Shown: in pieces, positions 2,233 to 13,230 of the stretch
Layout: every line of letters begins with the position of its first letter
Numbering within the stretch: the stretch's first letter is position 1
Source of the DNA: a virus
Lineage: Duplodnaviria; Heunggongvirae; Uroviricota; Caudoviricetes
Virus record (IMG/VR): IMGVR_UViG_2695420589_000016
DNA: 13,230 bases
Direction: 5' to 3' (one strand)
Translations under genes and position numbers: made by a program
The notes under the pieces: model-generated
What the model saw: only the letters and a program-made list of their open reading frames with translations
The model's database searches: none
Told to the model about the DNA's origin: nothing

Positions 2233-3342
2233 TCACTCTGTTTCTGCTATCCATTCCGGGATTTTTGCCTCAAGCTCAAGCTGCGTGGTAAAGCCGCTGT
2301 TATCAATGGTGTGCTCGGCTTTTGCAATAATCCAGTCCTGATTATCAATCTCGCTTTTAAATCCTGTTACCGTGCCATGCATTTCGGGGTAGAGTTCTGC
2401 ACGTCCATGCGCCAGTGTGATGGAGAATGATGCGGCTCCGCGTTGTAGCTGCTGCCACTTTGCCGCCGCTGCACGTCTTGCTGCCTGCTCGTTCTGATAA
2501 GTTTTGCGTAACACAAACACGTTGCCTTCCGCACCTTCCATATAGTCGCCTTCCCGGCTGCTGCTTTTCTCCTTTTTTGGTTTTGACGGTTTGCGGCGTT
2601 TCACGCTGACTTTTTTCTTTTTCCCGTAATTAAGATCAAGCCAGTAAGCGCGTACCCCCGTATACGCTTCGCGGTCAGCAATGCGGAACTGATGGCGATC
2701 GCCGCTGCTGCGTGTGATGGCGAACGAGGGCAACGGCTGGCCCTGTGCGTTCACGCCACCACCGGGCATGATGAATAACAGATTACCGCTTTTTACCGTG
2801 GTGATTGCGCCCAGCATTTCCGCCATGCGCGTAAGGAAGGACATGTCGCTTTCTTCGGTCTGGTCGGCGTGGTCGATTTCGATATCCATCAGCATTTCGC
2901 TGATTTGCGGTTTCAGACCATACCGATGAGCGATGGCGGATACCACACGCTCAACGGTCACATCATGCCAGGACACCTCACGTTTAACGTTAAATTCAGC
3001 CCGAAAATCTGCGCTTCTGGCTGAAACAGTCAGCCTGTCCGGCGGTCCTTCGTGAGCGATTTCATCAACAATGTAAGTGCCTTTTTCTGTCAGCGGTTCT
3101 CCCTTCCAGCCAATGAGAACCGTCAGGCGCGCGCCCCGTGGCGGTAGCTGCAACTGACCATCCGCATCATCCAGCGTGATGGTGAGCTGGTCCGCCTCAA
3201 ATCCCCGGTTGTCGGTCAGTGACAGGCTCATCAGGCGCTCTGCCACGCCTGACAGCGTTTTACCCTCCGCGAGAATATCAAAATCCGGCATTTTCACGGG
3301 GTCTGTGCCCTGACTGAGCAATTGCATGGTGGTGTCGGTCAT
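2233..3342 (-). CDS. D: Phage late control gene D protein (gpD, tail/baseplate hub)
   Basis: The ORF is open from 3474, but I place the start at the ATG at 3342-3340 (MTDTTMQLL...) because it has a strong SD GGGAGGG 6-7 nt upstream, whereas the ATG at 3474 has none and would sit 25 nt from the divergent FI start. Size (369 aa) and position next to ogr fit gpD. Family assignment is from recollection of gpD-like proteins, not a search. Confidence 0.7.
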   Translation of the reverse strand: MTDTTMQLLSQGTDPVKMPDFDILAEGKTLSGVAERLMSLSLTDNRGFEADQLTITLDDADGQLQLPPRGARLTVLIGWKGEPLTEKGTYIVDEIAHEGPPDRLTVSARSADFRAEFNVKREVSWHDVTVERVVSAIAHRYGLKPQISEMLMDIEIDHADQTEESDMSFLTRMAEMLGAITTVKSGNLLFIMPGGGVNAQGQPLPSFAITRSSGDRHQFRIADREAYTGVRAYWLDLNYGKKKKVSVKRRKPSKPKKEKSSSREGDYMEGAEGNVFVLRKTYQNEQAARRAAAAKWQQLQRGAASFSITLAHGRAELYPEMHGTVTGFKSEIDNQDWIIAKAEHTIDNSGFTTQLELEAKIPEWIAETE

Positions 3343-3499
3343 CTGCTCCCTCCCTGTGTGGCATGGTCGCATGTGCGTGCGGAGGGGGTTACTGCTTTTT
3401 GTTGTCGCCGTGGCGGGAGAATGGCGCAGGGGTGAGATTACGCGCGTGGTGGGTGATGATTGTTGCCGAATCATTTAACGGATACAAGGGGTTGAAGCT

Positions 3500-4684
3500 A
3501 TGAGTGAAACTCGTTTTCATGGTGCCCGTGTTACGGAAAATACCGACCTGGTAACAGCGATTAACGATGTTGATTCCAGCGTTATCGGTATCGTGGCAAC
3601 GGCGGATGATGCGGACGCGGAGCTGTTCCCGCTGAACAAGCCCACACTGCTGCCCCGCGTCAATGACGTGCTGGGAAAATGCGGAACAACGGGGACGCTT
3701 TATCGTGCGCTTAAGGCCATCGCAGACCAGGTGAGCACAAAGGTGATCGTCGTTCGCGTGGCTGAACACAAAGAAGAAGACGGAAAAACGCAGGATCAAC
3801 TGGTTATCGGTGGTTCTGAATCTGACGGCAGCTATACGGGGATGTATGCGCTGCTTGTTGCAGAGCAGGATGAAAGCATCGGATACCGTCCGCGTATTCT
3901 GGCCGCGCCGGAGCTGGACACGGAGGCGGTGACAAAATCCCTGTGCGTGATTGCGGGTAAACTGCGCGCGTTTGTGTATGCCTCATGTCATGACTGTAAC
4001 ACGATGGCTGAGGCAATTACCTACCGCCAGAAATTCAACGAACGTGAGGTGATGCTCTTATGGCCGGACTTCATCGCCTACAACCCGAAAAGTGGCAAAA
4101 ACGAAACGTTCCCCGCGCCTGCCTATGCGTGCGGCCTTCGTGCGTACATTGACCATGAGCAGGGCTGGCACAAATCGCTGTCCAACGTTCCGGTTAAAAA
4201 TGTGCTGGGGATGTCCAGGCATGTGTTCTGGTCGTTGCAGGCCGAAGACAGTGATGCCAACAGCCTCAACAACAAAGAAATCACGACCATTATTCGTCGC
4301 AACGGGTTCCGCTTCTGGGGCAACCGCACACCGGAAACGAACGCCTACATCTTTGAGGTGTATACCCGAACCGCACAGGTGCTGGCTGATTCAATTGCGG
4401 AAGCGCAGTTTGAAACCATCGACAGTCCACTGACGCCTGCGAACGTGAAGGATGTTATCGGTGCCATCAGGGCAAAACTGGATTCACTGGTTACTGCCGG
4501 GAAACTGATTGGGGCGTCGTGCTGGTATGACGTGGTGGATAACGGCACCACGAATTTACGTCAGGGGCGCGTGCGTATTCGCTACAAATATACGCCTGTT
4601 CCCCCGCTGGAAGACATGGAGCTTTACCAGTCGTTTACTGATGAATTCTTTGGTCCCGCATTTGCGGTGCTGGGAGGTGCCTGA
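3500..4684 (+). CDS. FI: Contractile tail sheath protein (gpFI)
   Basis: 394-aa ORF, ATG at 3500, AAGGGG upstream. Size and sequence character match myovirus tail sheath (P2 FI is about 396 aa). Its stop overlaps the FII start (ATGA at 4682-4686). Confidence 0.9.
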   Translation: MSETRFHGARVTENTDLVTAINDVDSSVIGIVATADDADAELFPLNKPTLLPRVNDVLGKCGTTGTLYRALKAIADQVSTKVIVVRVAEHKEEDGKTQDQLVIGGSESDGSYTGMYALLVAEQDESIGYRPRILAAPELDTEAVTKSLCVIAGKLRAFVYASCHDCNTMAEAITYRQKFNEREVMLLWPDFIAYNPKSGKNETFPAPAYACGLRAYIDHEQGWHKSLSNVPVKNVLGMSRHVFWSLQAEDSDANSLNNKEITTIIRRNGFRFWGNRTPETNAYIFEVYTRTAQVLADSIAEAQFETIDSPLTPANVKDVIGAIRAKLDSLVTAGKLIGASCWYDVVDNGTTNLRQGRVRIRYKYTPVPPLEDMELYQSFTDEFFGPAFAVLGGA

Positions 4685-5196
4685 TGGCTGTACCAAAACA
4701 TCTTCGCTTTTTTACGCTGTTTGTGGATGGTGAAAACGAAGTGGGTAAGGTGACGTCCGTCACTCTGCCTAAGCTGACGCGCAAAACCGACAGCTACCGG
4801 GGTGGTGGCATGATGGGAGCGGTAAGTATTGATCTCGGCCTGGATGACTCCGCGCTTGATGCGAGCTTTGTCATGGGGGGCGCAGTTCGTGAGCTGTTCC
4901 TTAAGTATGGCGGCACGATTGACGGTACGCTGCTGCGTTTTGCGGGTGAATACTACACCGACGCTGAAAGCGACCTGTATGAAGTCGAAATGCGCGGACG
5001 TGTGACGGAAATTGATATGGGGGAAGCCAAACAGGGCGAAGCCACATCACACACTTACGCCATTAAAAACACCTACTACAAGCTGAGTGTTAACGATCGC
5101 CCGTTGTGGGAGATTGACCTGCTGAACTTCATTTACCGGAAGGACGGCAGGGACATTGTGCCCGATCGCATCCGTTCCGCGCTCGGGCTTGGCTGA
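4684..5196 (+). CDS. FII: Tail tube protein (gpFII)
   Basis: 170-aa ORF translationally coupled to FI. Size and position match the P2 tail tube protein (about 172 aa). Confidence 0.9.
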   Translation: MAVPKHLRFFTLFVDGENEVGKVTSVTLPKLTRKTDSYRGGGMMGAVSIDLGLDDSALDASFVMGGAVRELFLKYGGTIDGTLLRFAGEYYTDAESDLYEVEMRGRVTEIDMGEAKQGEATSHTYAIKNTYYKLSVNDRPLWEIDLLNFIYRKDGRDIVPDRIRSALGLG

Positions 5197-5250
5197 TAAG
5201 TAATATGCAGGCGGCGCAGTGCGTCGCCTCTGACTGAAAGGAGTTTCCTG

Positions 5251-5616
5251 ATGAAAGAGACGAAAAACATCGATACCGAAAACACGGTCGTTGCTGACAC
5301 TGTGAAAGAAACCAGTGAGCGTGGCGTAAAACTTACCCAACCAATTGAGCGAGGCGGCGAAAAAATCACGTATGTGGAGATCACCGGGGCTATTGAGCAG
5401 GCTGGATCTCTGCGAGATTTGTCGCTGTCTGATGTGCTGAATTTGAAAGCGGAATCCATGTTTACGCTGCTGTCACGCGTGACATCACCGCGACTGGATG
5501 AAGTGACGATCAAAAAAATGGCATCCCGTGACTTTATTCAGTTATGTGTGGTTGCCGTAAATTTTTTGAGCGGTGCGGACTCTGGCGAGAAGAACGAACA
5601 GGCGACGGAAGCCTGA
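5251..5616 (+). CDS. E: Tail assembly chaperone gpE (zero-frame product)
   Basis: 121-aa ORF, ATG at 5251 preceded by AAGGAG. Sits between the tube and tape-measure genes, the conserved position of the tail chaperone, and contains the slippery heptamer near its 3' end. Confidence 0.8.
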   Translation: MKETKNIDTENTVVADTVKETSERGVKLTQPIERGGEKITYVEITGAIEQAGSLRDLSLSDVLNLKAESMFTLLSRVTSPRLDEVTIKKMASRDFIQLCVVAVNFLSGADSGEKNEQATEA

Positions 5617-5780
5617 TCACGGTTGTGTGCTTTGAGCACATAGAAGACTTTGTGGCGGATATTGCCGCCATTTTTAACTGGTCGCCCGCCGAAATCTTCA
5701 TGATGACGCCCGGCGAAGTGGTTAGCTGGCGTGAGCGGGCGGCACTTCGCAGCGGGAATGCAGACAATGAAGACTCTTGA
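5251..5780 (+). CDS. E': Tail assembly chaperone E+E' (-1 frameshift fusion product)
   Basis: The E frame up to the slippery site at 5562-5568 joined to the -1 frame ORF ending at 5780. This conserved two-frame chaperone arrangement precedes the tape-measure gene in P2 and most long-tailed phages. Confidence 0.65.
5562..5568 (+). other. Programmed -1 ribosomal frameshift slippery heptamer T_TTT_TTG (E to E')
   Basis: The heptamer is in the X_XXY_YYZ register relative to the E frame (codons AAT TTT TTG = N F L). The -1 frame is open from here to the TGA at 5778-5780. Confidence 0.7.
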
Positions 5781-8718
5781 TATCCGGGTCGCTTNNNNNN
5801 NNNNNNNNNNNNNNNNNNNNNNNNNNNNNNNNNNNNNNNNNNNNNNNNNNNNNNNNNNNNNNNNNNNNNNNNNNNNNNNNNNCCGCCTGATGGGGCAGTT
5901 TGGTGACTCCATCCAGCGAACGCAGGGGGCGATCAAAAATCTCGAGCGTCAGGCGCGTTCATTTGAGCGCGCCCGTGACGCTGTCAGTAAAGCGGATGCG
6001 GGCATCGTGAAAGCACGACGCCAGCTTAACGCCCTTAATCAGTTACAACGCACGGGTACAGTGCTCAGCGAAAAACAACAAAAGCTGATGCAGCAGTTAA
6101 GCACCCGGCTTGAACGCCTGAATGAATCGCGCACACGGGAAATTCAGAAAATGCGGGAACTTGGCGGAGAGCTGAAACGCCACGGCATTTCCCTGACAGG
6201 CAGCGATAACACCATCCAGCAGGCCATCAGACGCACCGGACAATACAACAACCAGCTTGAACGCGAACGGCGGGCGCTTGCGCGTGTAACGCAGGCGCGT
6301 GAGCGGTATTCACGCGCGCAGGAAACAGCGGGAAAACTGAAAACAGGTGGTGCGCTGGCAACAGGTGCGGCGGCAGCGGGCGGCTATGCTGCCGGGCGTT
6401 TTTTGCAGCCCGCTATCGGGTTCGGGAAAGAGATGTCCCGTGTTCAGGCACTGACGCGAATCGATAAAAACAGCCCGCAGTTTAAGGCGCTGCGTGAGCA
6501 GGCGTTAAAACTTGGCTCTGAAACGCAGTTCACCGCAGGCGATGCCGCCAGTGGACAGGCATTTCTTGCAATGGCTGGTTTCACACCGCAGGCCATTCAG
6601 GCTGCGCTTCCCGGCGTGCTGAGCATGGCAACGGCTGGCGGTATGGACCTCGGCGAGACGGCGGATATTGGTTCCAATATCCTGACGCAGTTCGGCCTCT
6701 CTGCTGACCAGATGGACCGGGTCGGTGACACACTTACCGCAGCGTTTACCCGTACCAACACTGACCTTCGCGCACTGGGCGAAACCATGAAATATGCAGG
6801 TCCGGTGGCGGGTAAGCTGGGAATATCGCTGGAGCAGGCCGCAGCGATGGCGGGCGTGCTGGCGAAGATGGGTATCAGGGGGAGTGATGCAGGTACAGCG
6901 TTGCGTAAAAGCCTGGCCAATCTGTCATCACCGCCAAAGGCAGCGGCAGAAGCACTGAAAGAGCTGGGGGTGTCAGTTGCTGACGCCAAAGGCAAAATGC
7001 GCCCGATGGAGAATGTGCTGGCCGATCTCTATAAAGCCACCCGCAAATACGGGGAGGTTGACCGGGTATCGTTCTTTAAGGACATTGCCGGAGAAGAGGC
7101 TTTCACATCATTTATGGGCCTCGTTGATGCGGCAGGTGACGGCNNNNNNNNNNNNNNNNNNNNNNNNNNNNNNNNNNNNNNNNNNNNNNNNNNNNNNNNN
7201 NNNNNNNNNNNNNNNNNNNNNNNNNNNNNNNNNNNNNNNNNNNNNNNNNNNNNNNNNNNNNNNNNNNNNNNNNNNNNNNNNNNNNNNNNNNNNNNNNNNN
7301 NNNNNNNNNNNNNNNNNNNNNNNNNNNNNNNNNNNNNNNNNNNNNNNNNNNNNNNNNNNNNNNNNNNNNNNNNNNNNNNNNNNNNNNNNNNNNNNNNNNN
7401 NNNNNNNNNNNNNNNNNNNNNNNNNNNNNNNNNNNNNNNNNNNNNNNNNNNNNNNNNNNNNNNNNNNNNNNNNNNNNNNNNNNNNNNNNNNNNNNNNNNN
7501 NNNNNNNNNNNNNNNNNNNNNNNNNNGGGAAGCTGGCTACGTTGCGTCTCGGTTTTTCTCTCCTGACCGAATCAATGAATGTTGTCAGGGTTCTGCCTGC
7601 ATTATGGGGAATNNNNNNNNNNNNNNNNNNNNNNNNNNNNNNNAATGGTGACGGGTTCCGTTTCTTTACTTGGTGGCGCTATCGGGGCGCTGTTCAGTCC
7701 GGTTAGTCTTATCGTGGCTGCGCTTGCCGGAGCTGCCGTTCTTATCTGGAAATACTGGGATCCCATCAGGGCATTTTTTGCCGGGGTGTTCAGCGGGATT
7801 ATGGAAAGGCTGACCCCGTTGCGCGAAACCTTTGAACGGTTTGGCCCTGTTTTTGATGTCGTGCGCGATGGGATTATTCAGGTCTTTAACTGGTTTAAAT
7901 CGCTGCTGTCACCGATGGAGTCCAGCAAGGAAACGCTGGATAAATGTGCCAGTGCTGGCGAGATATTCGGTAACGTTCTTGGCGGTGCGTTACAACTTGT
8001 TCTGACACCTGCAAAAATGCTACTGGATACGCTGGCGTGGATACTTGAAAAACTTGGCGTCCTTCCGGATGAAGCGGAAAGGGCGCGCAAGAAAATCGAA
8101 GACGCACAGCGTGCGGCCATTCTTCAGGACAAGGTTGCCTTGCTTCAGGGGAACCTGGCGAAAATCAATCCGCCGAAGCCTGTGGAAAATGGCAATGGCA
8201 CCGGAGGTGATAAACCCAAAGACAACAAACCGCTCACAGACAGCAATACCGGGACGCTACGCAGACTCAGCAAAATTGCTGATAACACAGGTAAGCTGGT
8301 TGATGAGACGAAAAAACGCATTGGCCCCGGCGATATTGTCTTTAAGAACCTGCCCCGCGCACTTGCTGTTCGTGGGGAGTGGCAGGAGCGGAAGATTGCG
8401 CAGGTCAGTAAGCCTGCCCCCGCAATTAATATCACACCCGTGGTCCCGGCTCCGCTGCCTCCGGCGCTGGTCCCTGTTGTTGCGGCCAGCTCCCGCCCGG
8501 TGGCGGAGGCCATACGCTCTCCAGTGGCATCAGTTCCTGTAACTTCCCGTAACCGGGAGCCTGTTGCCTCCGGATTTGGTGGTGAAATTCATGTTCATCT
8601 GCATAACGTTGTTACGCAGAATCCCCGCGAACTGGCGAAACTGGTCGGTGAAATGGTCAGGGCAGAAATGGAACGGCGCGCCCGTGCCGGGCGTGGCAGT
8701 TTTTACGATAAAGATTGA
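5767..8718 (+). CDS. T: Tail tape measure protein (gpT), interrupted by three N-runs; length and continuity uncertain
   Basis: ATG at 5767 (MKTLDIRVA) overlaps the E' stop. The N-terminal part is coiled-coil-like; the central part has the Gly/Ala-rich tape-measure core (GGALATGAAAAGGYAAG..., AGGMDLGETADIGSNILTQFGLS..., GIRGSDAGTALRKSL...). The C-terminal part runs 7645-8718 (MVTGSVSLLGGAIGALFSP...) with TGA at 8716-8718. N-runs at 5795-5882, 7144-7526 and 7613-7643 fall inside the gene. Confidence 0.75.
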
Positions 8719-8730
8719 GGAGTCATGGCC

Positions 8731-9219
8731 ATGATGATGATCTACGGCATGTTTGTTTTTGAGCTGCGTACATTGCCGCATCAGCAGTTACAGCAAAACA
8801 AAAGCTGGCGGCATGTGAAAAATGAACGCGTTAACCGTTCGGCAAGCTGGCAGTATATCGGTGCAGGTGATGAGCGCATCGTTCTTTCTGGTGTGCTTTA
8901 TCCTGAAATTACAGGTGGCGAAGTGTCGCTGTCGCTGCTGACCACGCAGGCGTATACAGGACGACCCTGGCCTCTGATTGATGGCGTCGGGCAGATTTAC
9001 GGCATGTATGTCCTGACCGAAACGAATACGACCCGCTCCGAGTTTGATCGCTACGGTAAGGCGAAAAAGATAGAATTTTCACTGACTCTTGAACGCTGTG
9101 ATGAGGATTTGCGGGAGCGCCTGCAATCCTCATCGTTCAGCGATATGCTGTCCGGCTTCAAAGATAAGGTAACATCATCCCTTAACAGCGCGGCCAGTTC
9201 AGTTAAAGGGTTGTTCTGA
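8731..9219 (+). CDS. U: Tail protein gpU
   Basis: The ORF is open from the ATG at 8725, but SD GAGGAG (8717-8722) is only 2 nt from it, so I prefer the ATG at 8731 or 8734 (MMMIYGMFVFELRTLPHQQ...). About 160 aa, directly after T, as for P2 gpU (about 159 aa). Confidence 0.8.
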   Translation: MMMIYGMFVFELRTLPHQQLQQNKSWRHVKNERVNRSASWQYIGAGDERIVLSGVLYPEITGGEVSLSLLTTQAYTGRPWPLIDGVGQIYGMYVLTETNTTRSEFDRYGKAKKIEFSLTLERCDEDLRERLQSSSFSDMLSGFKDKVTSSLNSAASSVKGLF

Positions 9220-9230
9220 TTTAACACAAA

Positions 9231-9267
9231 AACCGCTAATGGTCAGATTAGCGGTTATTTTGTTTCC
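9231..9267. terminator. Bidirectional rho-independent terminator between gpU and the invertase gene
   Basis: Perfect 10-bp inverted repeat AACCGCTAAT (9231-9240) / ATTAGCGGTT (9247-9256) with a 6-nt loop, flanked by an A-run upstream (9224-9230) and a T-rich run downstream (9257-9267). It lies between convergent genes. Confidence 0.55.
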
Positions 9268-10096
9268 TGACTCTTCTCTATTGTTCCGATTGATTCTCCT
9301 GCGGGGTGGTAACGATAAATCGTCGATATACCAATGCCGTAAATTATTGCCAGTTGTTTTCTGTCGTGCCCGTTTTTGATCAGCCTTGCTATTTGCTCAT
9401 GCTGTTCTTTTGTCAGCTTCGGTCGACGTCCGCCTGTGCGCCCCCGTGCGCGTGCTGCCGCCAGTCCGGCCAGTGTACGTTCAACAATTAATTCACGTTC
9501 CATTTCAGCCAGGGCACCCATCACGTGGAAGAAAAAACGCCCCATTGGAGAAGATGTATCTATGCTGTCGGTCAGACTGCGAAAATTAATTCCTCGCTCC
9601 CGTAGTTCCCCGACGAGAGAAATCAGATGTTTCATGCTTCGCCCGAGGCGATCCAGTTTCCNNNNNNNNNNNNNNNNNNNNNNNNNNNNNNNNNNNNNNN
9701 NNNNNNNNNNNNNNNNNNNNNNNNNNNNNNNNNNNNNNNNNNNNNNNNNNNNNNNNNNNNNNNNNNNNNNNNNNNNNNNNNNNNNNNNNNNNNNNNNNNN
9801 NNNNNNNNNNNNNNNNNNNNNNNNNNNNNNNNNNNNNNNNNNNNNNNNNNNNNNNNNNNNNNNNNNNNNNNNNNNNNNNNNNNNNNNNNNNNNNNNNNNN
9901 NNNNNNNNNNNNNNNNNNNNNNNNNNNNNNNNNNNNNNNNNNNNNNNNNNNNNNNNNNNNNNNNNNNNNNNNNCCTGTCCTTGTTCCGCTTAATTTATCT
10001 TCAAATATTTGTTCATATCCTGCACAAACAAGAGCGTTTCGTTGCAGGTCTGTATTCTGGTCATTTGTTGANNNNNNNNNNNNNNNNNNNNNNNNN
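9255..10096 (-). CDS. Serine DNA invertase, Gin/Cin/Pin/Hin family (internal region masked by N-run; start inside N-run, approximate)
   Basis: C-terminal part 9255-9661 reads (W)[62 protein letters not shown]...GRRPKLT... and the N-terminal fragment 9974-10069 reads [32 protein letters not shown]. Both closely resemble phage Mu Gin and e14 Pin as I recall them, including the catalytic-serine region VSTNDQ. The start codon is predicted about 8 codons upstream of the visible fragment, inside N-run 10072-10194. Confidence 0.85.
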
Positions 10097-10194
10097 NNNN
10101 NNNNNNNNNNNNNNNNNNNNNNNNNNNNNNNNNNNNNNNNNNNNNNNNNNNNNNNNNNNNNNNNNNNNNNNNNNNNNNNNNNNNNNNNNNNNNN

Positions 10195-10211
10195 ACCTCG
10201 GTTTACGAGAA
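10195..10211. other. Partial invertase crossover site (gix/hix-like), left half lost in N-run
   Basis: ACC-TC-GGTTTACGAGAA at the first unmasked bases after the N-run. It matches the recalled gix core ...AAACC-TC-GGTTTACAGGAA at 10 of 12 positions in the right half-site, and sits next to the invertase 5' end, as gixR does next to gin in Mu. Confidence 0.45.
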
Positions 10212-10970
10212 CTCGGCACAAGCGGGGAGAAAATACCGTTACTCAGTACAGCGAATACCTGGACTAATCGACAAACATTCAGCGGTGGCCTTTCTGGTGA
10301 ACTATCCGGCAATGCTTCTACAGCTGCAAAATTAAAAACTGCCAGGAAAATAAGCAATGTGGCTTTTGATGGTTCCTCCGATATCACATTAAAAGCAAGT
10401 CATGTTGGTGCGTTTGCCTTAGGGAAAACAGGAAGCACCGTTGCGAATGATAAAGCAGTTGGATGGAACTGGAGTAGCGGAGCCTATAACGCAACTATTA
10501 GTGGTGCATCAACGTTAATTATTCATTTTTATATGGGAGAAGGAAGTTGTCCTGCAGCTCAGTTTCGGATTAATTATAAAAATGGCGGTATTTTTTATCG
10601 TTCAGCCCGTGATGGTTATGGTTTTGAAGCCGACTGGTCCGAATTTTACACCACCAGAAAACCTTCAGCAGGAGATGTTGGTGCACTGCCGTTATCTGGT
10701 GGTCAACTGAATGGTGCACTGGGTATCGGAACATCCAGTGCTCTTGGCGGTAATTCGATTGTATTGGGTGATAATGACACGGGCTTTAAACAAAAAGGCG
10801 ATGGTAATCTGGATGTTTATGCTAATAACGTCCATGTTATGCGCTTTGTCTCCGGAAGCATTCAAAGTAATAAAACCATAAATATTACGGGACGTGTTAA
10901 TCCCTCGGATTACGGTAACTTTGATTCCCGCTATGTGAGAGATGTCAGACTTGGCACACGAGTTGTTTAG
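10197..10970 (+). CDS. Alternative tail-fibre C-terminal variable segment (Sv'-like), no own start codon, ended by an in-frame TAG
   Basis: The frame is open from the crossover site and encodes ...TANTWTNRQTFSGGLSGELSGNAS...[23 protein letters not shown]. The GNFDSRYV(R/K)DVRLG motif is shared with the intact fibre segment on the minus strand (12214-13230). Expression would require inversion to fuse it to the constant part of the fibre gene. Confidence 0.6.
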   Translation, partial: LGLRELGTSGEKIPLLSTANTWTNRQTFSGGLSGELSGNASTAAKLKTARKISNVAFDGSSDITLKASHVGAFALGKTGSTVANDKAVGWNWSSGAYNATISGASTLIIHFYMGEGSCPAAQFRINYKNGGIFYRSARDGYGFEADWSEFYTTRKPSAGDVGALPLSGGQLNGALGIGTSSALGGNSIVLGDNDTGFKQKGDGNLDVYANNVHVMRFVSGSIQSNKTINITGRVNPSDYGNFDSRYVRDVRLGTRVV

Positions 10971-11120
10971 ACCATGAAGAAAGGCGTGATGTATGAAAAA
11001 TCAGGCCATGTAATCACGGGGCTTGGTATTATCGGTGAAGTCGATGGTGATGATCCGGCAGTATTCAGACCAATACAAAAGTTAATTAACGGAACATGGT
11101 ATAACGTATCGCAGGTATAA
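10971..11120 (+). pseudogene. In-frame continuation of the Sv' fibre segment after the TAG, encoding the conserved fibre C-terminus (49 codons)
   Basis: Same frame as 10197-10970. Encodes [49 protein letters not shown], colinear with the C-terminus of the minus-strand copy (...[43 protein letters not shown]). Its TAA at 11118-11120 is 2 nt before the tfa' start, mirroring the coupling of the other copy. Confidence 0.55.
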
Positions 11121-11122
11121 TC

Positions 11123-11656
11123 ATGCAGCATTTAAAAAACATTGTCGCAGGTAATCCAAAAACCGTTGAACAATACCAGCTAACAAAGAATTTTGATGTT
11201 ATCTGGTTATGGTCCGAAGATGGAAAAAATTGGCATGAGGAATTAAAAAACTTTCAGGAGGATACAATAAAACTGGCTTACACAGTTGAGGGAATAATTA
11301 TTGCTATAGACAAGGATGTATCAGCAATTAATCCAGAAGGTTTAAGTGTCGTTGAGTTGCCTGATATTACAGCAAATCGCCGGGCTGATATTTCGGGCAA
11401 CTGGATGTTCAAAGATGGTGCGGTGATAAAGCGAACTTATACCGAGGAAGAGCAAAGGCAACAAGCGGAAAATGAAAAGCAGAGCCTGCTGCAGCTCGTC
11501 AGGGATAAAACCCAGCTGTGGGACTCTCAGCTACAGCTGGGCATCATTTCCGATGAGAATAAACAAAAATTAACCGAGTGGATGCTCTATGCGCAGAAGG
11601 TTGAATCCACAGACACCTCCAGCCTGCCAGTAACGTTTCCCGAACAACCAGAATGA
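11123..11656 (+). CDS. tfa: Tail fibre assembly protein (Tfa, chaperone for the Sv' fibre segment)
   Basis: 177-aa ORF, ATG at 11123. N-terminus [20 protein letters not shown]... and ...[34 protein letters not shown]... are typical of the Mu U / P2 G / E. coli TfaE family and paralogous to the minus-strand tfa. Confidence 0.85.
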
Positions 11657-11661
11657 AACAA

Positions 11662-11689
11662 GGCCCGATATCGGGCCTTAATTTTTACT
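11662..11689. terminator. Bidirectional terminator between the convergent tfa genes (perfect 16-nt palindrome GGCCCGATATCGGGCC plus T-run)
   Basis: The palindrome at 11662-11677 is followed by TTAATTTTTA on the plus strand and by a U-rich stretch on the minus strand. It sits between the tfa' stop (11654-11656) and the tfa stop (11685-11687). Confidence 0.55.
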
Positions 11690-12212
11690 CAGGCTTTTGT
11701 GGCCATTCTGGCTTTGCCGTATCCACACGGCTGACCAGAACACTGTAGCGTTCCCATGCTTCCAGTCGTGTGCGTTCCTCGTCTGTTGCCATATTCAGCC
11801 TGACAGCGCGTTCCAGCGGCTGGATGACTGATTCAGCTTCGGAAAGCAATGCGGCCTTTTGTGATTCGGCCTGTTGTTGCTGTTCGTCAGCCGTATAAAT
11901 CCGTTTAACCACAGCTCCGTCCTTAAACATCCACTTACCGGAATCATCAGCACGACGATTAGCTGTAATATCAGGAACCTCAACGACGCTATAACCTTCA
12001 GGGTTAAGCGTGGAGGCATCTTTGGTGATGGCGACAATAATATTATTTGCATCGTAAACAATCTTTATTGTGTCTGGCTGAAAGTTCTTCACTTCCTCAT
12101 ACCAGTTTTTTCCGTCCTCAGAGTAAAGCCAGATGACTCCGTGCTTCTTTGTTAACTCATACTGCTCCACTGTTTTAGCATTACCTGCTTTTATGTTCTT
12201 TAAGTGCATCAT
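11685..12212 (-). CDS. tfa: Tail fibre assembly protein (Tfa, chaperone for the currently expressed fibre segment)
   Basis: The ORF is open from 12245, but the homologous start [20 protein letters not shown]... is the ATG at 12212-12210, 1 nt after the fibre stop codon (12216-12214). The sequence parallels the plus-strand Tfa throughout (...[33 protein letters not shown]...). Confidence 0.85.
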
Positions 12213-12213
12213 A

Positions 12214-13230
12214 TTAAATACTCGCCACATTATACCAAGTGCCATTTATATACTTTTGCACTGGCCTGTAATGAACGCCTGCAATATTATCGGCAGAGTT
12301 TTTTCCGGTATCCTGTACGTTAATCCCCGTCAGTACATAGCCTGACGGGCACTGAAAATTCCATGTTTGCCAGTTGTTCACTCCATAATATTGCTGTGAA
12401 CCAAGTCGAACATCTTTCACATATCTGGAATCAAAATTGCCATAGTTGCCGGGAATAACTTGCGAGCCGCAAAGCCAGTTCCCGTTATTATCCATGTACG
12501 CCTGACCATCGGTGCCATTGGCTGTCCTTGAGTTATTAATCATGTAGATGCCAAATTGCTTATTTCCCAGACCGCCAATCATAAATTTGCGGTCGGCATG
12601 GTCCTGACGGAGCAAAGCCTGAGCACCATCAGTGGATACCGCATTACGTCCCAAAATAACATTCTGGTCACGCATATGAATCCACATGCCGGTACTACTG
12701 TTAATTGCAAAACGGTTTGCAAATATATCCCCTGTAACATCAAGACCATGCCCCATGCTTATCCGGCCAGTTCTGAGATTAAGCGTAAAGGGGCGTAGTG
12801 GCCCTATATTACCATTTTCCCCTTCATTCTCTCGTGTAGGGATGATATGCAGGCATTCTTCAGAACGACGAAAAATGGCACCAAAAGATGAATTAAATAT
12901 CCTCAGTGCATTGACTGTCGATATTTTCACTTCACTGCTGAAAAGGGCTTCAACAAGAACAGACAAAGCATTCCATTTAAGATTCATCAGGTCTTTAGGC
13001 CGGGTGCCAATGATGCGGTGTCTCCATTTGAAATATTCATTGCCGTTGTTGCCTGTTTCAAACCACATGTAGGAATCGGTGTCTGCATCCGAATTATTTT
13101 TAAACCCAATCTTTGCCCAGTCAGTATTTCGAATCCAGGCAAGGATTGAGTCGTTTTCAAAAGTAAGTCCACCGGACAACGTATCGCCATTTTTTTGCAC
13201 GGCGTTACCAGCCTTGTTTACCGTTTCCTG
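12214..13230 (-). CDS. Tail fibre protein, C-terminal receptor-binding portion (gene continues past the window end)
   Basis: The frame is open from the window end ([26 protein letters not shown]...) to TAA at 12216-12214. It carries the [14 protein letters not shown] motif and the C-terminus ...[19 protein letters not shown]. The ORF tool's M at 13200 is a GTG inside the open frame, not the true start. Confidence 0.8.

Follow-up and report, generated by a model that had tools for sequence, protein, structure and literature searches.

A nonsense codon in one alternative arm of an invertible tail fiber segment carried by Shigella sonnei prophages

An In-frame Stop in a Tail Fiber Segment

The window (the whole stretch of 13,230 nt analyzed here) carries a variable tail fiber arm whose reading frame is interrupted by an amber codon and then continues. 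The question raised by this locus is whether the stop is an error of the record, a codon with which the fiber still works, or a lesion that disabled the arm. An earlier note, made from the letters alone, had proposed a nonsense mutation and left the choice between decay of the unused orientation and a sequencing error. Our analysis indicates that the stop is very probably an inherited nonsense mutation in one alternative arm of a Gin/Pin-type invertible fiber segment, that is, a case of pseudogenization and not a regulatory device.

The tail module of the window is P2-like. It contains gpD on the - strand, sheath FI, tube FII, E/E', a tape measure gene broken by Ns and gpU, followed by a serine invertase of the Gin/Pin family on the - strand. 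The invertase is present in two pieces. Its C-terminal two-thirds (9255 to 9661, - strand) belong to the P2-like prophage type, give Pfam matches to Resolvase and HTH_7 on 9255-9635, and are 100% identical to the corresponding sequence of the relatives L046, L047, L049, L051, and L052. The N-terminal piece (9974 to 10071, - strand) is a 98-nt island between N runs and is the allele of the lambdoid context, 100% identical to a truncated invertase fragment that lies beside the TAG arm in other loci and 96.9% identical to the P2 invertase. Both the start of the invertase and the left half of the crossover site fall within the N run at 10072 to 10194. Further N runs occupy 5795-5882, 7144-7526, 7613-7643, and 9662-9973.

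Two opposed cassettes follow, one of arm and tfa' on the + strand (10195-11656) and one of tfa and arm on the - strand (11685-13230). The + strand arm, Sv', extends to the stop (10195 to 10967), is of the type found in a lambdoid prophage of S. sonnei, and matches Pfam gp37_C with E=1.3e-7. Its beginning lies in the left crossover site, at the core; the 17 nt visible at 10195-10211, ACCTCGGTTTACGAGAA, correspond to the core plus the right half of a gix-like site, and the rest is hidden by Ns. The gene tfa' (11123 to 11656, + strand) encodes the intact 177-aa assembly protein of the TAG arm (Pfam Caudo_TAP, E=4.8e-34), and the exact protein was found in 4765 index blocks. The spacer between the two convergent tfa genes (11657 to 11684) contains a GC-rich hairpin, AAGGCCCGATATCGGGCCTT, a putative, probably bidirectional terminator. 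On the - strand, tfa (11685 to 12212; 175 aa from MMHLK; Caudo_TAP, E=3e-37) is of the P2-like prophage type. The exact 175-aa protein is encoded by all of the P2-like prophages L045-L052, and the 186-aa version of the open reading frame was not on record in an exact-protein look-up. The PF02413 (Caudo_TAP) scores of the two tfa genes were 117.8 and 128.1 bits against a cut-off of 22.1 bits. The other variable arm, of the P2 type (12214 to 13230, - strand), is intact to its stop codon at 12214-12216 and runs to the end of the window, where the last 6 nt (13225-13230; CAGGAA on the - strand) are the visible part of the right crossover site.

These features, an adjacent serine recombinase, opposed fiber plus tfa cassettes and the occurrence of the TAG segment in both orientations (18 OFF and 2 ON among the loci described below), are those of a Gin/Pin/Cin-type switch, as far as they are visible. 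The earlier description of a fiber switch was thus right in kind, but the junctions between constant and variable parts (Sc/Sv) are hidden by the N run at 10072-10194 and by the window end, and the constant part of the fiber lies outside the window.

The gix site has the sequence TTATCCAAAACCTCGGTTTACAGGAA. In the relatives of the window segment the full crossover sites are TTATCTAAAACCTCGGTTTACGAGAA and TTCCTGTAAACCGAGGTATTCGATAA, and TTATCGAATACCTCGGT... was also read. With the Mu G (S/U and S'/U' with Gin), P1 C (Cin), and e14 P (Pin) segments, the locus shares two opposed cassettes of a variable fiber C terminus and tfa, 26-bp inverted crossover sites with a ACCTCGGT core (complete in the relatives, visible in part in the window), an adjacent serine invertase, both orientations in nature, and a tip homologous to that of Mu S (PDB 5YVQ and 8JU3). 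It differs from them in the nonsense codon of one arm, in its host prophage, which is lambdoid (stf) and defective, and in the local invertase of S. sonnei, which is only 60 aa long, so that inversion must rely on an invertase encoded elsewhere.

The Codons behind the Stop

The fiber frame on the + strand reads ...DVRLGTRVV and meets TAG at 10968-10970, as had been described. Behind the stop the same frame remains open for 49 sense codons (10971-11117) and is closed by TAA at 11118-11120. The stranded stretch (10971 to 11120, + strand, TAA included) is a conserved C-terminal tip module with the motif SGHVITG, and its internal ATG at 10974 opens a sub-ORF of 48 aa whose product is annotated in S. 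sonnei. The ATG of tfa' at 11123 follows the TAA after a spacer of 2 nt. The two genes are therefore closely coupled, as the earlier note had held, but the TAA and the ATG do not overlap.

The probability that a frame stays open by chance for 49 codons behind a stop is about 0.095. However, the stranded residues are identical at 49 of 49 positions to the C terminus of the intact alleles of Escherichia coli NCTC86 and OZ040035, which shows that the colinearity is not due to chance. The proposed colinearity with the C terminus of the minus-strand fiber was likewise confirmed. The two share the span from the motif DSRYV(R/K)DVRLG to INGTWYNV, with SGYVLTG in the minus-strand fiber where the stranded codons have SGHVITG.

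The Codon in Intact Relatives

The codon was compared in orthologous fiber genes, a check that the earlier note had suggested. In E. coli NCTC86, OZ040035, and four other complete E. coli genomes the fiber gene is uninterrupted, with 99% identity to the window over the arm plus tfa'. NCTC86 and OZ040035, both aligned to the window, have CAG at the site of the stop and encode the same downstream peptide. Their lambdoid stf-tfa invertible segments also have the same neighbors, one gene for a truncated recombinase and one for a SAM-dependent methyltransferase. They differ from the window in CAG instead of TAG, in an extra Thr codon and in 7-8 further substitutions, and the fiber of OZ040035 is annotated as a continuous protein of 934 aa.

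More distant fibers gave the same result. The C-terminal module is shared by gpH/gpG of the P2-like Yersinia phage L-413C and by the Mu-like Yersinia phage vB_YpM_5, both functional phages with an uninterrupted fiber gene; the stretch of L-413C examined has no invertible segment. Nucleotide identity to the window is 85% for L-413C (arm plus tfa') and 93% for vB_YpM_5 (tip plus tfa'). Gln occupies the mutated position in L-413C gpH and in vB_YpM_5, and the peptide downstream of it is closely similar in both. The sharing of the stop by a functional phage, which would have spoken against a lesion, was thus not observed in either of them.

In a degenerate pattern scan of IMG/VR (31 contigs), counted together with three other fetched loci, CAG was found 28 times and TAG 6 times. 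The tip is present in 161 of 5426 complete E. coli genomes, and in none of the 5426 are the 91 nt that surround the stop matched exactly; the best matches are 1 base off. Apart from TAG, the alignment of the window arm with NCTC86 and OZ040035 revealed only the 7-8 substitutions and the in-frame deletion of the Thr codon, and TAG is the sole disabling change in the arm.

Because the intact alleles combine CAG with the same 49 downstream residues, the lesion is, as read from these alignments, a single C-to-T transition at base 10968 that converts CAG (Gln) into TAG. The proposal of a nonsense mutation in the alternative fiber therefore held, with CAG as the codon in every intact relative examined.

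Distribution of the TAG Allele

The absence of TAG from all 5426 complete E. coli genomes scanned, together with the nature of the window as a gapped draft scaffold whose base quality is open to doubt, could suggest a base error of sequencing or assembly in one record with CAG as the true codon. The distribution of the allele leaves this reading with practically no probability. Six IMG/VR contigs from different source genomes carry TAG and match the window without a single difference between 10195 and ~11600. Twenty long chromosomal loci, assembled independently and fetched via the 48-aa ORF and via tfa', all carry TAG and are identical to the window at 1462 of 1462 positions over the arm and tfa' (10195-11656). 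This gives 26 TAG loci beyond the window. Moreover, at least 1000 contigs, most of them under the name Shigella sonnei, have exactly the 48-aa ORF that the stop leaves behind as an annotated product, and it was found in 2201 index blocks. Since the same TAG stands in identical flanks in 26 other loci, a sequencing error, the second choice offered by the earlier note, was rejected. TAG is an inherited allele that is reproducible across independent assemblies.

The assignment to S. sonnei follows the database labels of the 48-aa product and is not a phylogeny. One label reads "putative tail fiber protein (GpH) [Shigella sonnei]", and another is the UniRef entry A0A0I5G696_SHISO. The pattern around the stop had no match among the genome contigs of GTDB species representatives, and these representatives are therefore without the TAG allele.

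Public annotation already lists the leftover ORF as a "tail fiber" fragment of 48 aa. What the comparison provides is a quick check of an in-frame stop from a single window against population data, by which an error was excluded and a lineage-wide allele was shown. S. sonnei is a clonal pathogen in which the expansion of IS elements and the decay of genes are well known. The biological weight of the lesion is small; it adds a further pseudogene to those of a cryptic prophage in this species.

The Host Prophage and Its Inversion

In all 20 chromosomal loci the segment sits in a lambdoid prophage adjoining trpA. Preserved copies show the genes J, lom and stf, then the invertible segment, and behind it an invertase stub of 60 aa and a SAM methyltransferase. 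As a phage it is defective, with J broken into two ORFs, with insertions of IS1 and of the IS3 family, and with only 60 aa left of the invertase. In several genomes (L035-L037, L039, L041, and L044) the constant part of stf was removed by an IS, so that neither arm is expressible there.

The TAG arm is in the OFF position, adjoining the invertase stub, in 18 of the 20 loci. It is ON in the remaining two, L042 (CP044151.1) and L063 (CP026802.1), where it is joined in frame to stf (...AVIEYLGLRELGTSG...), giving a predicted product of 875 aa that ends at TAG and is followed by the 48-aa ORF. ON and OFF loci differ by an exchange of half-sites that falls precisely on the ACCTCGGT core, which identifies a genuine site-specific inversion. 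Full inverted sites with half-site exchange were seen in L038 compared with L042 and in L045 compared with L046. The explanation by decay of the unused orientation was correct as to decay but too narrow, since the whole prophage has decayed and 2 of the 20 loci have the TAG arm in the position for expression.

Intact invertases of 195 aa are encoded by the P2-like prophages of the relatives L045-L052. One of these prophages shares its chromosome with an ON locus (L049 and L042 are both from CP044151.1). With only a stub encoded locally, the inversion would depend on an invertase that acts in trans, from another prophage. The persistence of precise flipping in S. sonnei with only a stub of the local invertase is a mildly interesting point on the side.

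A precedent for such trans-action is the e14 P segment of E. coli K-12, which is inverted by PinQ, giving StfE2, a block of phage adsorption and an anti-T2 effect (PMC12529663). The two cases would share the inversion of a fiber segment of a cryptic prophage by the invertase of another prophage. They differ in the outcome, a new chimeric protein with a demonstrated effect in e14 and a mere truncation of one arm here.

This precedent bears on the possibility that the truncated arm was kept because the host uses the switch of the cryptic prophage, the truncation being tolerated or even useful. Precise inversion despite the 60-aa stub points to an invertase acting in trans, as PinQ does on e14, and an intact 195-aa enzyme is available in the P2-like prophage of CP044151.1. 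However, no sign of selection was seen, the copies being identical through clonality, and in the genomes that lost the constant part of stf to an IS neither arm can be expressed. We consider host use highly improbable and continue with pseudogenization as the preferred explanation.

Consequences of the Truncation

The part of the fiber that is lost was located by a phmmer search of the PDB with the arm in which Gln was restored. The arm matched Mu S/S' (8JU3) with E=8.3e-55, and arm residues 230-305 matched residues 424-502 of the 504 residues of Mu S (5YVQ) with E=5.1e-16. TAG is residue 258 of the arm, and the lost part corresponds to about the last 50 residues of Mu S, with the stranded codons aligned to Mu S residues ~450-502 (5YVQ). 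The Pfam family PF06820 (Phage_fiber_C) touches the tip weakly (E=0.017; 15.9 bits, under the cut-off of 25 bits).

In Mu, Tfa stays on the distal part of the fiber and ensures assembly and trimerization, as stated in a passage of PMC9608196 that cites the 5YVQ work. In the P2-like phage P88, the host range is set by a stretch of 31 residues (716-746) near the C terminus (PMC5285337), which for the present arm is no more than a lead. The paper on the receptor-binding protein of L-413C contained no truncation data. Since the truncation removes a module like the tip of Mu S, and Tfa binds the distal fiber according to that passage of PMC9608196, loss of function is predicted, in that the truncated fiber would be unable to fold or to recognize a receptor.

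The course of events was very probably as follows. In one of the segment's two arms for the fiber C terminus, a C-to-T transition turned the Gln codon CAG into amber, and S. sonnei carries the resulting allele in the defective lambdoid prophage beside the trp operon. Whenever this arm comes to lie behind the constant part, Stf would end 50 residues early, at 875 aa, and would lack the conserved distal tip module. The lost tip is the equivalent of the C-terminal end of Mu S, the distal region to which the chaperone Tfa binds in driving trimerization. The remaining 49 codons are intact only because a clonal lineage acquired the lesion recently.

A fiber that still works despite the stop was considered as an alternative, either through suppression or natural read-through with Gln or through reinitiation at the ATG at 10974, which would yield a split fiber, the 48-aa tip peptide joining the truncated shaft non-covalently. 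A suppressor of the glnV (supE) type would insert exactly the wild-type Gln, and the change from CAG to TAG is of the class that supE turns back to wild type. Suppressors are rare in natural isolates, however. No tRNA gene, and hence no suppressor tRNA, was found within the 13,230-nt window, and the stop is present in no functional phage compared (L-413C and vB_YpM_5). Reinitiation would be permitted by the spacing of stop, ACC and ATG, but the ATG at 10974 is no new feature. It encodes a Met that the intact protein conserves, within the motif TM(K/Q)KG shared by all relatives. The Shine-Dalgarno sequence ahead of it is very weak, with a calculated anti-Shine-Dalgarno pairing of -2.5 kcal/mol compared with -7.1 for the sheath gene and -11.5 for the tube gene. 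The value for tfa' is also low (-3.9 kcal/mol), so that a weak Shine-Dalgarno sequence is not decisive in this operon.

The integrity of the 49 codons and of tfa' could also be taken as a sign of function, as could the continued flipping of the segment with the arm ON in 2 of 20 genomes. The intact codons are, however, explained by a recent lesion in a clonal lineage (1462/1462 identical positions), and the prophage is otherwise defective, with a split J and IS insertions, so that there is no particle for the fiber to serve. A working fiber therefore has very little probability in our assessment. The same low probability applies to the ON strains in particular, in which the 48-aa tip, the 875-aa shaft and Tfa' would have to form a fiber in two pieces or the truncated Stf would need a function for the host. 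The 48-aa leftover ORF, with its poor ribosome-binding site, is most likely not a functional gene.

Assembly of the Window

The earlier note had named the minus-strand fiber as the intact partner of the TAG arm. It is intact, but it belongs to the other prophage type, and the pairing of the two is probably an artifact of assembly. The tail genes of the window are 100% identical to those of a P2-like prophage in the same S. sonnei chromosomes (L045-L052). In this prophage type the native Sv' arm and tfa' are different sequences, with 81% identity for tfa' over 11128-11526. The contig from 10195 to 13230 is composite. It is of the lambdoid type up to 11656 and of the P2 type from 11657, with lambdoid alleles again at 11784 and 11787, the only positions at which its P2-type side differs from L045-L052 (99.9% identity). 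The switch lies in a stretch of 54 nt (11603 to 11656, + strand) that is identical in the two segment types, the last mismatch to the P2 type being at 11602 and the first mismatch to the lambdoid type at 11657.

The N runs were also considered as masks that preserve length. The four runs between 5795 and 9973 measured 88, 383, 31, and 312 nt, compared with 43, 318, -3, and 60 nt in identical relatives. Masking was rejected because these lengths are off by +45, +65, +34, and +252 nt against sequences of 100% identity. Since the gap lengths disagree with real sequence, the N runs are scaffold gaps.

From these sequence comparisons, the pairing of the TAG arm with the P2-type minus-strand fiber is probably a chimera of two co-resident prophages, generated when a short-read scaffold crossed from one to the other via a shared repeat. 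It is also conceivable, though rather doubtful, that the arrangement is real and that a patch of ~1.7 kb, from the N terminus of the invertase to the end of tfa' and with TAG included, was transferred by gene conversion from the lambdoid to the P2-like prophage. In that case the P2-like switch would truly alternate between the TAG arm and the P2-type arm. Both prophages reside in one chromosome, they share ~500 nt at 97-100% identity around the tfa'/tfa junction as well as the N terminus of the invertase, and both breakpoints lie within homologous sequence. Against gene conversion, the mismatch of the N runs with real lengths marks the window as a scaffold, and its contig 10195-13230 is bounded by crossover sites, as for an invertible segment assembled alone. 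The switch via only 54 identical bases, with the subsequent alternation of P2, lambdoid (11784 and 11787) and P2 alleles, is a pattern that bubble-popping typically leaves where a repeat has been collapsed. Furthermore, the hybrid context was found in none of the long contigs read that carry either tfa, and the junction was absent from the IMG/VR viral contigs in a junction scan. Exchange between the prophages mediated by an invertase was rejected as the source of the hybrid, as neither breakpoint is at a crossover site.

Because the window is gapped and probably mixes segments of two prophages, it permits no inference on the fiber with which the switch alternates. The verdict on TAG is the same for a chimera and for gene conversion.

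A scaffold with a similar mis-join of the two prophages, which likewise speaks against gene conversion, is L031. It would at first sight demonstrate expression of the TAG arm from a P2-like H gene and was rejected as such proof, because its single-N joins at 5233 and 10309 exactly bound its lambdoid-type block, identifying it as a scaffold chimera.

Inversion of the trp-proximal fibre segment

Both orientations of the trp-proximal fibre segment of Shigella sonnei were seen among the 20 chromosomal loci that carry the segment with the amber codon (10968-10970) beside trpA. The half-site exchange between L038 and the ON-orientation locus L042 (CP044151.1) was exact, with crossover sites at 9222 and ~12137. 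The invertase adjoining the segment is only a 60-aa stub, and its presence beside a segment found in both orientations indicates inversion in trans. The trans-acting enzyme is probably the intact 195-aa invertase of a P2-like prophage on the same chromosome. In the IMG/VR contig L022, sequence of the constant N-terminal fibre part (Sc) was found at both segment ends (1-178 and 3090-3838), joined in the + orientation to the arm with the amber codon and in the − orientation to the other arm. This double Sc is expected if the culture that was sequenced supplied reads of both orientations.

A class I SAM-dependent methyltransferase of 222 aa (6416-7084 in L001/L002, 8109-8777 in L035) and small fragments of the tail fibre assembly gene tfa were always present together with the invertase stub by this type of segment, in both Escherichia coli and S. 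sonnei. The methyltransferase may be cargo carried at the end of the prophage.

The P2-like prophage and damage to its switch in three genomes

The P2-like prophage has the gene order ...I H G / segment / invertase / U T E FII FI / D ogr, which was identical in all eight relatives (L045-L052). In these and in the window (2233-9219), the FI-FII-E-T-U block and the invertase are inverted relative to H-G and D, and the order thus differs from that of P2. Directly past gpD, at the prophage edge, is an ORF of 500 aa (505-2007, − strand) whose N-terminal part matches the PIN_4 domain (E = 4.5e-8); it was also found in L045 and L052. In three complete S. sonnei genomes (L047, L049, L051; L049 from the same chromosome as L042), IS3-family elements lie between the invertase and the segment of the P2-like prophage and also within the P2-type tfa', which is cut to 137 aa. 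These insertions show that the second fibre switch of these three genomes is damaged as well. The IS borders are an expected break point of a short-read contig (window equivalent ~11528).

Assembly of the window

Five N runs interrupt the window (5795-5882, 7144-7526, 7613-7643, 9662-9973 and 10072-10194). Complete genomes contain the P2-like prophage at 100% identity, and against this real sequence the lengths of the first four are at odds (88 versus 43, 383 versus 318, 31 versus an overlap of 3, and 312 versus 60 nt), which marks the window as a gapped scaffold. A single tape measure gene of 935 aa is split in the window into ORFs 5731-7566 and 7579-8718.

The contig with the segment (10195-13230) is a mosaic, of lambdoid-prophage type to 11656 and P2-like beyond. 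The switch falls within 11603-11656, and the P2-like part is broken by two lambdoid alleles, at 11784 and 11787. The mosaic looks like a collapsed-repeat assembly that crossed between two co-resident prophages; genuine gene conversion between them would be a less likely source of the same pattern.

Scaffold L031 was considered as evidence of a P2-borne arm with the amber codon and was rejected. Its single-N joins (5233 and 10309) fall exactly on the two edges of a lambdoid-type block that comprises the methyltransferase, the invertase stub, the segment and shared Sc and has P2-like contigs on either side; L031 is thus a chimeric scaffold.
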